Assembly: GCF_036507355.1 (NCBI RefSeq)
Contig: NZ_AP027877.1
Length of the DNA stretch: 64,000 nucleotides
DNA from: Escherichia coli
GTDB lineage: Bacteria > Pseudomonadota > Gammaproteobacteria > Enterobacterales > Enterobacteriaceae
Strand: one strand, 5' to 3'
This document shows, piece by piece, positions 34,401 through 37,400 of the stretch. The position numbers were made by a program. Position 1 is the stretch's first letter. Every line of letters starts with the position of its first letter.

Positions 34401-37400
34401 TAGTATCAGTTATTTCTCTGATCTCTTTAGTCATTTGGGAGTCGACCTCAGAGAACCCGATTCTTGATCTCAGTTTGTTTAAGTCCCGTAATTTCACCAT
34501 TGGTATTGTGAGTATCACATGCGCGTATTTATTTTACTCTGGAGCGATCGTCCTTATGCCGCAGTTATTCCAGGAAACGATGGGGTATAATGCGATATGG
34601 GCCGGACTTGCTTATGCGCCCATCGGCATCATGCCACTATTAATTTCACCTTTGATAGGACGTTATGGCAACAAAATAGACATGCGGTTGTTAGTGACAT
34701 TTAGTTTTTTGATGTATGCGGTTTGCTATTACTGGCGTTCTGTGACATTTATGCCAACGATTGATTTTACAGGTATCATTTTGCCGCAGTTTTTTCAGGG
34801 ATTCGCCGTTGCCTGTTTCTTTTTACCCTTAACAACGATTTCGTTTTCAGGCTTGCCAGATAATAAATTTGCCAATGCCTCGAGTATGAGTAATTTTTTT
34901 CGTACCTTGTCAGGATCAGTTGGTACATCGTTGACAATGACGCTGTGGGGGCGACGCGAATCGTTACACCATAGTCAGTTGACAGCAACCATCGATCAAT
35001 TTAACCCTGTATTTAATTCATCGTCACAAATTATGGATAAATACTATGGTTCGCTTTCAGGAGTTCTTAATGAAATTAATAATGAAATAACCCAGCAGTC
35101 ACTTTCTATTTCTGCAAATGAGATTTTCCGTATGGCGGCTATTGCTTTTATCTTACTTACGGTTTTGGTTTGGTTTGCGAAACCGCCGTTTACAGCGAAA
35201 GGCGTTGGGTGATGGTAAAAGCAGGGGGTTATAGCGGGTAAGACCGGGGATCTTAAGTCTGCGCCATCGGCAGCATCGCTCACCCAGGGAAAGGATGGCG
35301 ATGCTGCGTTGAAATGTTATTAACGGCCTTTTGCCAGATATTGATTCATCTCTTCTTCCGGCACCATTCCACCTCCCGTCGCCCACACCAGATGAGTGGC
35401 ATTACGCAGTTGTTCTGCGCTGAAACCGTGCATCAGTTGGTAACTTACTGATGCACACACGCGCTGAGGTCCGGCCATACCCGCCAGTGCCGAAGGTTCA
35501 AGACGAATACCTTCTTCCTGCGCCAACCCAAGAATTACAGTGCGGTTAGATGGCGGAAAGCCGGTCAAGAGTGTTTGGGGAGGTGGGGAAGGCGGTGATT
35601 CTGCATTTGCTCCACAACCAATACAATTTATAAAGACCTTGGCTAAGCATAAAAAAGCTATTTTTGGGTTTGAACCTTATGGATCAACTATGCAAGTAGT
35701 TGAGTTTGACTTGTCTGAGATTGATAAGGTTGTGGAAAAAATTTCACAGTCTTGCAATTGGAAATAACAAAAAAATCTCATATGAACCCAGTTGGCTCTG
35801 GGTTTTTTATTTCTGTTGTCTATAATGTATTCATAATTTTTACTGGGATACAGTGCACATAAAATCCCAATTGCGGTAGGACGATAACTGGATCAGGTGG
35901 AGGCACTTACGCAAGAATTGATAGTATTAATTTGCATAGAGCAACGCGAAGTTATTTATAAATTAACTGATATAGAGTACTAGATGTAATCCGAACCGGT
36001 TATGATTCGTCACCAATTTTGCAAGAGGCTGGGTAGGTAAGCTATTGGATACCGTAGGTAGCAAAAATATAGAAGGAGGGGAAGAATTGCTAAACTCGAG
36101 CATTCACTTAAATCTGAGTTATTTATTGTTAAGATATAATACACTTTGAATAATAGAGGCTATATGACAACGAAAATAAGCAAAGATGATAAACATCTGC
36201 TTGATCCTTATTTAAAATGGCTTGCAAACAAGAAGCTAATGGTTGCCTTCTGGTTGGTGCTAATGATATGTGGTTGCATATATGCATATATAGAAAATGA
36301 TTGGTCACTTCTTCCCCGATTCGGATGTTTAGGCATAATGATTGGCACATTGCTTACTCTTTCTCCGCTTTTTGCAGAAGGTATCTACCTATCAAGGCGA
36401 GAAGCATGAATCGCCACGGATAATCTAGACACTTCCGAGCCGTTGATAATACTGGTTTTCATATTCTGTCGGTGACATCTGATCGCTGGAACCATGCCGA
36501 CGCTTACTGTTATAAAACATTTCGATGTAATCAAAAATATCGCTGCGGGCTTCTTCCCGCGTTCCGTAGATCTTTTTCTTTATCCGTTCGCGTTTCAACA
36601 ACTGGAAAAAGCTTTCTGCAACCGCATTATCATGGCAGTTACCGCGACGGCTCATGCTGCCATCCAGGCCGTGTGATTTCAGGAACGACTGCCACTCATG
36701 GCTTGTGTACTGACTGCCCTGATCCGAATGAACCAGCACCTGTTTTTGGGGATTACGGCGCCATACAGCCATCAGCAGTGCGTTCAGGACAATGTCCTTT
36801 GTCATCCGGGATTGCATGGACCAGCCGATAATTTTGCGTGAGAACAGATCAACAACCACGGCAAGATACAGCCAGCCTTCGTGGGTCCTGATGTAGGTTA
36901 TGTCCGTTACCCAACGCTTATCCGGAGCATCCGGATTGAACTGTCGCTGGAGCCTGTTGGGCGACACGATACTGGCCTCGCCTTTACGTGCCCGCGGGCT
37001 CCGGTATCCGACCTGAGCCTTTATCCCGACACGTTTCATCAGTCGCCAGACTCTGTTCACTCCGCACTGTTGCCCGCTGTCCCGCAGATCCAGATGGATT
37101 TTGCGATAACCATAGACGCATCCCGATTCCAGCCAGAACTGTTTAATCTGCCCTGTCAGCCTCAGGTCTGCCTGATGGCGTTGTGAATGCGGCTGCTGAA
37201 GCCAGGCGTAAAAACCACTGGGATGAACATCCAGCACCCGACAGAGCAGGCGAACAGGCCAGCAACAGGTGTTGTCACGGATAAAGGCGTACCTCAGTCG
37301 GACAGCTTTGCGAAGTACGCCGCGGCTTTTTTTAATATGTCCCGTTCGTCGGTAACCCGCTTCAGCTCTTTCTGGAGACGGCGGATCTCGGCCTGAGCAT

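Follow-up and report, generated by a model that had tools for sequence, protein, structure and literature searches.

A probable lambdoid prophage remnant between a dsdA stub and an IS3-family element at the argW locus of Escherichia coli

The argW-dsdCXA region of Escherichia coli is a recombination hotspot at which the D-serine trait varies among pathotypes (PMC4366372). The argW remnant of GIMC1405 lies between intS/argW and dsd, has its late genes toward intS and is eroded from the dsd-proximal side; the order there is emrY, dsdA, (csc), argW prophage remnant, intS, argW. CPS-53/KpLE1 of K-12 is presumably an argW-integrated defective prophage of a comparable kind. The nearest relatives of the DNA studied here are Escherichia phage IdasGreatGrand (PP925829) and the prophages of E. 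coli S21 and H14, all of which share the order VasI-like gene, terminator, spacer, 134-aa gene. In IdasGreatGrand and S21 both genes are intact and the 134-aa gene is followed by other cargo, including an Ant-like Bro-N/P22AR-C protein.

Here we describe an AT-rich block at positions 35524-36406 of a 64,000-nt stretch of E. coli DNA (the window; RefSeq assembly GCF_036507355.1, contig NZ_AP027877.1), flanked by a 3′ stub of dsdA and an IS3-family element. We read the block as the left-hand end of what survives of a defective lambdoid prophage at tRNA-Arg argW that has decayed by two independent rearrangements, and give this reading a probability of roughly 0.93. The window remnant has the same site, orientation and position between intS/argW and dsd as the GIMC1405 remnant, and it too is eroded from the dsd-proximal side; what sets it apart from other argW prophages is a deletion that enters dsdA itself and the phage VasI-like gene. 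The features of the locus are as follows.

35320..35528, minus strand: 3′ stub of dsdA (D-serine ammonia-lyase), about the last 68 codons and stop
35524..35528, no strand: putative deletion junction between dsdA′ and a phage gene, 2-5 nt common to both sides (CAACC)
35524..35767, plus strand: 3′ remnant of the gene for a 164-aa VasI/IalB-like phage protein ('TagO', phrog_1848), codons 85-164 and stop
35784..35815, plus strand: intrinsic terminator of the TagO-like gene with T-run, stem at 35784-35805
35845..36133, no strand: AT-rich spacer, confined to the IdasGreatGrand/S21 lineage, with no Rfam match, convincing ORF or promoter
36134..36406, plus strand: 5′ remnant of the gene for a 134-aa three-TM phage accessory membrane protein (leader, ribosome-binding site, codons 1-81)
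36407..37635, minus strand: IS3-family insertion sequence, 1229 bp, with orfA at 37294-37578 and orfB at 36425-37237
37636..38036, plus strand: 3′ remnant of a 195-aa phage hypothetical gene (WP_029396318.1, LR-50), about the last 132 of 195 codons
38109-38225 and 38222-38677, plus strand: small ORF and ybcN, where phage collinearity resumes
54461-55654, minus strand: intS
55780-55854, minus strand: tRNA-Arg(CCT) argW

The block differs from its surroundings in base composition. Its G+C content is 0.34-0.37 (35550-36299), against 0.48-0.53 immediately upstream and 0.44-0.57 inside the IS, and by the moron criterion it is also unlike the surrounding phage genes, the nin genes having a G+C content of about 0.50. 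To its left lie emrK, emrY (33674-35212) and a minus-strand ORF at 35320-35568. By megablast, 83 of 5426 complete E. coli genomes match 35530-36409. The homology ends at query position 315, which is window position 35844, in 81 of these 83, and the feature matched there is the 164-aa gene, named "type VI secretion system-associated protein TagO" in RefSeq. The entire block is present in S21 and H14 (2 of 5426 genomes, 99.0 % identity, megablast), where the match takes in both the 164-aa gene and a gene for a 134-aa hypothetical protein. IdasGreatGrand, the sole sequenced temperate phage carrying the block in the phage collection searched, is 99.5 % identical to it over 884 nt (35524-36407), with 4 substitutions. 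Because full-length homologues of both ORFs exist in other genomes at 99-100 % identity, these ORFs are real gene fragments and not chance ORFs.

The same phage is again collinear with the window past the IS. Window 38037-44165, which holds ybcN, nin genes, ninE, rusA, Q and lysis genes, is 96.7 % identical to PP925829 22783-16655. Beyond the nin/Q/lysis stretch follow terminase, portal, head and baseplate or tail-fibre genes, then an acyltransferase; past 44165 the packaging, head and tail modules of IdasGreatGrand are unlike those of the window. Since the collinearity with this phage resumes on the far side of the IS, we take the block to belong to the prophage remnant that runs to intS/argW, and to form the left end of a defective prophage of about 20 kb at argW, not an orphan. 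An earlier sequence-only reading had placed an AT-rich segment of about 0.9 kb between the dsdA stub and the IS; this segment is present, its coordinates (35524-36406) differing by a few bases. The same reading had held the segment to be unrelated to either neighbour, which the collinear phage DNA at 38037-44165 contradicts, and had called it a fragment of an unknown element. A fragment it is, but the element is a lambdoid nin slot, 99.5 % identical to PP925829 and 99 % to S21/H14. The intact ancestral locus, which that reading had thought recoverable by BLAST, was found in this way, with intact genes in IdasGreatGrand, S21 and H14.

In the S21/H14 prophage the block directly follows the gene for replication protein P and ren, and precedes ybcN, ninE, ybcO, rusA and Q; in IdasGreatGrand, too, it lies between P/ren and ybcN. 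The slot in intact relatives consists of ren, the 164-aa gene with its terminator, the 134-aa gene, variable cargo, a 33-aa ORF and ybcN. The block would come from this accessory-gene slot of the early-right operon, bounded by ren and ybcN (ninB). The stretch after the 134-aa gene carries different cargo in S21, IdasGreatGrand and LR-50, and elsewhere the slot holds emrE (in a DLP12-like prophage) or unrelated hypotheticals (locus L002). Like emrE, which directly follows ren in the DLP12-like prophage, the 134-aa gene is small multi-TM cargo of the ren-ybcN slot, and like other small nin-region membrane-protein genes it is AT-rich and swapped between phages as a unit. At the position of the small ORF before ybcN, a 33-aa hypothetical protein is annotated in other genomes, and a 35-nt motif occupies 38160-38194; in K-12 we assume this position to be that of ylcH of DLP12. 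The upstream half of the module (ren, P, O) is absent from the window, consistent with a deletion.

The first ORF of the block, listed as 35540-35767, ends ...MQVVEFDLSEIDKVVEKISQSCNWK (...SQSCNWK). Window position 35524 is the third base of codon 84 of the 164-aa gene, leaving codons 85-164, and the listed 75-aa ORF begins at an in-frame GTG that is V90 of the 164-aa protein. The remnant is without the signal peptide and the first half of the protein. When intact, the protein has an N-terminal signal peptide (MRKFILAFVISASFTANA|G) and two invariant cysteines, C66 and C161, and is a member of phrog_1848 (E = 5e-70), a family whose function is not known. On Pfam PF11319 (VasI) a full-length homologue scores 26.3 bits and misses the cut-off of 26.5, and most close homologues have a precomputed PF11319 match; on the TIGR03360 VasI equivalog it scores 13.6 bits against a cut-off of 124.2, which is likewise missed. 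The 164-aa protein is thus a borderline relative of the PF11319 domain, not a VasI equivalog. On the strength of its signal peptide, C66/C161, phrog_1848 membership and PF11319 and TIGR03360 scores, it is a secreted phage protein of the VasI/IalB fold, of which IalB of Bartonella (PDB 3dtd) is a named relative. A PDB sequence-profile search with the VasI-like family gave no match. The phage protein differs from the VasI/TagO accessory proteins of type VI secretion systems (T6SS; PF11319) in falling below the TIGR03360 cut-off and in having no T6SS genes nearby, all contexts examined being prophage early operons that lack a T6SS gene cluster beside the 164-aa gene. The RefSeq name 'TagO' is a family label, and its use for the phage protein is no sign of a type VI secretion system. 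A literature search returned nothing relevant on prophage TagO/VasI proteins or on phage IdasGreatGrand.

The terminator that follows has an 8-bp stem, a 6-nt loop and a T-run, and is the only terminator-like site within 35400-36500; the 56-nt stretch round it folds at -13.7 kcal/mol (z = -2.9). The segment common to about 83 E. coli prophages ends about 40 nt beyond the terminator stem, at 35844. A promoter scan of the block returned sites no commoner than in shuffled sequence. An Rfam scan of 35200-38300 on both strands returned zero matches at E <= 1, ruling out a known structured RNA in the AT-rich spacer.

The second ORF starts at ATG 36164, behind an AGAGG ribosome-binding site at 36155-36159, encodes hydrophobic helices at residues 25-43 and 53-71, and stops at TGA 36407-36409, the three bases with which the inverted repeat of the IS opens. 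Intact copies of the 134-aa gene are found at 8641-9045 of locus L001 and at 6001-6405 of locus L004, and the IdasGreatGrand copy is 100 % identical (tblastn). Three helices are predicted in the intact protein, at about residues 23-44, 47-71 and 98-133 (hydropathy and structure model); the truncation removes TM3 together with the invariant SSxINAFGD motif. For a 77 %-identical gene of loci L013/L014 the homology to the window runs from 36134, and in the copy of a P4-like satellite it begins 30 nt 5′ of the ATG. In Enterobacter prophages the gene follows its predecessor at a distance of 29 nt, as in an operon. Downstream of the intact gene there is only a weak terminator-like site (L004 6554-6571). 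The best promoter-like site for the 134-aa gene would yield a near-leaderless transcript, and such sites are no commoner than in shuffles.

The sequence-only reading had seen here a short terminated ORF and a gene for a two-TM protein closed by the TGA of the IS, and had judged neither product identifiable. The ORF and its clean terminator are real, but the ORF is the 3′ half of a 164-aa gene (codons 85-164) and no small gene in itself. As had been noticed, the TGA at 36407-36409 does belong to the inverted repeat of the IS, and two helices are indeed encoded by the remnant, the intact protein having three. As to identity, the first product can be assigned at family level, and the second belongs to a definable conserved family.

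This family of 134-aa proteins comprises 42 clusters at 90 % identity in a set of 5.8 billion proteins, the named members of which are all from Enterobacterales and all labelled "hypothetical", and 54 representatives at 50 % identity among 1.84 billion proteins. Its carriers are temperate phages and a P4-like satellite. In the family alignment (A1) 28 positions are invariant, among them those of GTLLTLSPLF in TM2 and of SSxINAFGD in TM3. Searches of Pfam, NCBIfam, PHROGs and PADLOC with the 134-aa protein gave noise only (E 0.005-0.9), and the PADLOC models, BstA included, matched the protein of neither remnant. A PDB sequence-profile search with alignment A1 gave chance matches only (E > 0.5), and a fold search of the 134-aa model (pLDDT 71) against viral structures gave nothing at E <= 0.001. 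Not one of the family members scanned has a Pfam domain; the fused or longer members P0073, P0089, P0096, P0109 and P0084 likewise carry none that hints at function, and the remote members P0100 and P0106 have short or non-phage contexts without a common neighbour. The protein differs from SMR transporters, holins, known exclusion proteins and PADLOC defence proteins in having no sequence or profile similarity to them. Holin, SMR, Abi, exclusion and defence identities were considered and are unsupported, the profile libraries having given noise only. Our best guess, made from context, is that the intact 134-aa protein is a phage accessory inner-membrane protein.

A recurrent neighbour was seen at other loci of the family. 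At 12 of 20 family loci in IMG/VR the membrane-protein gene overlaps the start of a homologue of the DNA polymerase III theta subunit (PF06440), a HolE/Hot-like phage gene, by 3 to 28 nt; the membrane proteins there share 44-67 % identity with the query. Prophages of Enterobacter and Pantoea show this arrangement as well, an Enterobacter copy of the pair lying at 5001-5652 of locus L006. The pair is found in nin regions and also, beside recT, in an early-left operon, which argues for a travelling two-gene cassette. The theta gene is absent from the E. coli lineage, where the membrane gene is followed by a remnant that resembles the small ORF before ybcN and contains the motif ATGCAGAAATRCACCTGC, found again immediately upstream of ybcN. 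That the intact 134-aa protein has an undescribed function and forms a genuine two-gene phage module with theta is a tentative idea, which we think possible and hold with more doubt than belief. If true, the protein could, for instance, regulate an accessory factor of replication proofreading or be its partner in the membrane, or it could serve in exclusion.

At the left edge of the block, the annotated dsdA of more than 5000 complete E. coli genomes matches window 35250-35525/35528 with 99-100 % identity. The dsdA homology stops at 35525-35528 and the phage homology starts at 35524, giving the junction string ...CTGCGCCAACCCAAGAATTACAGTG..., which not one of the 5426 complete E. coli genomes spans. 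Neither an IS nor an att sequence was found at this junction. Read from the sequence, the left edge bears what we interpret as the signature of an illegitimate, microhomology-mediated deletion. In a first step, such a deletion at the CAACC microhomology would have brought the VasI-like gene, from codon 85 on, up against roughly the final 68 codons of dsdA. As the late genes of the prophage read toward intS/argW in the window, in the same orientation as in the other E. coli with dsdA and an argW prophage remnant, the lost DNA would be the phage early side, attR and the dsd genes. The deletion would then have taken the early region of the prophage (ren, P, O, cro, cI and the recombination and excision genes) and, along with attR, dsdC, dsdX and most of dsdA (about 374 codons).

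At the right edge, the IS has 38-nt terminal inverted repeats (TGAATCGCC.../...GGCGATTCA), TG...CA ends and two ORFs. Copies 99.8-99.9 % identical to it are present on many E. coli chromosomes and plasmids, where they are annotated as 'IS3 family transposase, programmed frameshift'. The junction between gene and IS reads ...GGCGAGAAGCATGAATCGCCACGG...; where the intact 134-aa gene continues TTTAGTTTTGG... / ...GAAGCATTTAGTTTTGG, the window enters the IS instead. No target-site duplication, which for a simple insertion would be expected to measure 3-5 bp, was found, the flanks being AGCA| and |GGAA. The right flank of the IS is the 195-aa gene from about codon 63 onward, 401 nt making up its 3′ two-thirds. 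This remnant is 99.8 % identical to 7001-7440 of locus L005, where the intact CDS spans 6814-7401, and has a weak phrog_27260 match. The 195-aa gene is intact in one complete genome only, that of strain LR-50, where it lies just upstream of ybcN.

Two other identities for the right-hand side were rejected. The S21 prophage carries a BstA abortive-infection protein beside its 134-aa gene, in a stretch missing from the window; a BstA defence remnant to the right of the IS was ruled out, the right-hand remnant matching the different, 195-aa gene. S21 also has an IS3 element just upstream of ybcN, which is not the same insertion and gave zero megablast or blastn matches to the window IS.

In a second step, an IS3-family element would have inserted after codon 81 of the membrane-protein gene, its inverted repeat supplying the TGA stop. 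Since there is no target duplication and the far flank lies inside a different gene, an IS-associated deletion probably occurred, and the DNA between the 134-aa and 195-aa genes may have been lost through an IS-mediated adjacent deletion or through recombination of two IS copies. The data fit either of these alike and cannot distinguish them. We count the missing duplication in favour of such a deletion and not against the IS3-family identity of the element. The gene/IS junction, like the dsdA′ junction, is absent from the complete E. coli set, and intermediate states, such as an intact argW prophage in this lineage or a copy of the IS with a target duplication, were not observed there.

Other histories of the locus were weighed against prophage decay. 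IS3-family elements usually insert simply, and the IS of the window is complete with both inverted repeats, so that one might suppose a simple insertion without deletion, the gene past the IS being the original continuation of the interrupted one. This we consider the least probable reading, one that hardly needs entertaining: the flanks (GCA vs GGA) show no target-site duplication, and the intact gene continues with sequence other than the right flank, which is the interior of an unrelated 195-aa gene. Scarcely more credible is the idea that the block derives from some unknown element of its own, has nothing to do with its neighbours and carries an intact small terminated gene and a two-TM protein. 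It could draw on the AT-richness of the block relative to its flanks, on a second product without Pfam, NCBIfam, PHROG or PADLOC family, and on the presence of the whole block in just 2 of 5426 complete E. coli genomes; against it, the block is near-identical to and collinear with a temperate phage and prophages, with collinearity resuming past the IS, and its 'small ORF' is the 3′ half of a longer gene.

A further reading concerns function instead of origin: even after truncation, the 81-aa two-TM ORF would be expressed and would act as a small membrane peptide, by a function either retained or newly acquired, the IS stop having created a stable new product. The ORF does retain its native ribosome-binding site and start codon, and TM1 and TM2 are undamaged, with the invariant GTLLTLSPLF in place; the stop is immediate, without an IS-encoded tail. 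It has nonetheless lost TM3 with the invariant T96, R101, N106 and SSxINAFGD, its truncation is unique among the genomes searched, the promoter scan offers it no convincing site, the phage early-right promoter is deleted, and the terminator at 35784-35805 stands upstream. This makes a functional peptide very improbable, if slightly less so than the two preceding readings. Judging from the truncations, both remnants are most likely non-functional in the window genome: the first because it is without start codon context, signal peptide and promoter, and the second because a third of the protein and its invariant residues are lost, a terminator lies upstream and the early-right promoter is deleted.

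The block is a case of routine prophage decay at a known hotspot, its sequence already being in public phage and genome records, and is of little importance beyond annotation. A defective argW prophage, not a new element, is to be given as the source of both ORFs, which should be annotated as pseudogene remnants. With dsdC, dsdX and most of dsdA gone through what would be a prophage-linked deletion, the strain should be unable to use D-serine. The one lead that reaches further is the uncharacterised three-TM family, which is often coupled to a phage theta subunit.

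The variable position between ren and ybcN in the lambdoid nin region is a hotspot for defence and accessory genes, because in the E. coli S21 prophage (locus L001) this slot carries an Ant-like gene together with the abortive-infection defence gene BstA (PADLOC BstA, E = 4e-121), on a stretch that is absent from the window. The features concerned are as follows.

Window 35320-35528: dsdA stub, ~68 codons left.
Window 37636-38036: second IS-truncated gene, of which the 3′ part is left; its hypothetical product is 195 aa long when intact and matches phrog_27260 weakly.
Window 38160-38194: ~35-nt conserved motif, core ATGCAGAAATRCACCTGC, inside a small ORF just upstream of ybcN.
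L001 9193 and 12851, L004 (phage IdasGreatGrand) 6553 and 8556, L013 (P4-like satellite) 4854: further copies of the motif.
L001 9641-11377: Bro-N/P22AR-C Ant-like gene and BstA gene.
L006 (Enterobacter prophage) 5001-5652, L010 5001-5650, L026-L044 (IMG/VR): pair of three-TM and theta genes.

In S21, IdasGreatGrand and the P4-like satellite the ~35-nt motif recurs directly after the 134-aa gene, and it looks like a module-boundary sequence where cargo gets exchanged.

The 134-aa three-TM family is read from its gene arrangement as translationally coupled to a phage DNA polymerase III theta gene (PF06440, HolE/Hot-like). The pairing occurs in 12 of the 20 IMG/VR viral-contig loci and also in Enterobacter and Pantoea prophages, at nin as well as early-left positions; in the E. 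coli lineage, window included, the three-TM gene has no theta partner. Stop and start of the two genes overlap by 3-28 nt. The 195-aa gene is intact in only one of 5426 complete E. coli genomes, that of LR-50; there the gene immediately before it is a theta gene with a frameshift.

The prophage itself is short (~20 kb) and mosaic. Collinearity with IdasGreatGrand ends at 44165; in the part past that point (44165-55654) the window has a different type of packaging and head genes. The baseplate, tail-fibre, acyltransferase and intS end matches argW prophage remnants of other strains at 98-99%, with an indel relative to GIMC1405. Further internal deletions are implied by this.

Between emrY and argW dsdC and dsdX are absent (window 35320-35528 and 35524-55854), and D-serine use by the source strain is predicted to be impossible. 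The dsdA/phage junction was found in no complete E. coli RefSeq genome. The phage gene remnant at this junction (35524-35767; homologue L001 7744-8238) is labelled 'type VI secretion system-associated protein TagO' in RefSeq. Its protein scores slightly under the Pfam VasI cut-off and far under the VasI equivalog cut-off, no T6SS genes were found among its neighbours, and the name is likely to misdirect automated T6SS surveys.
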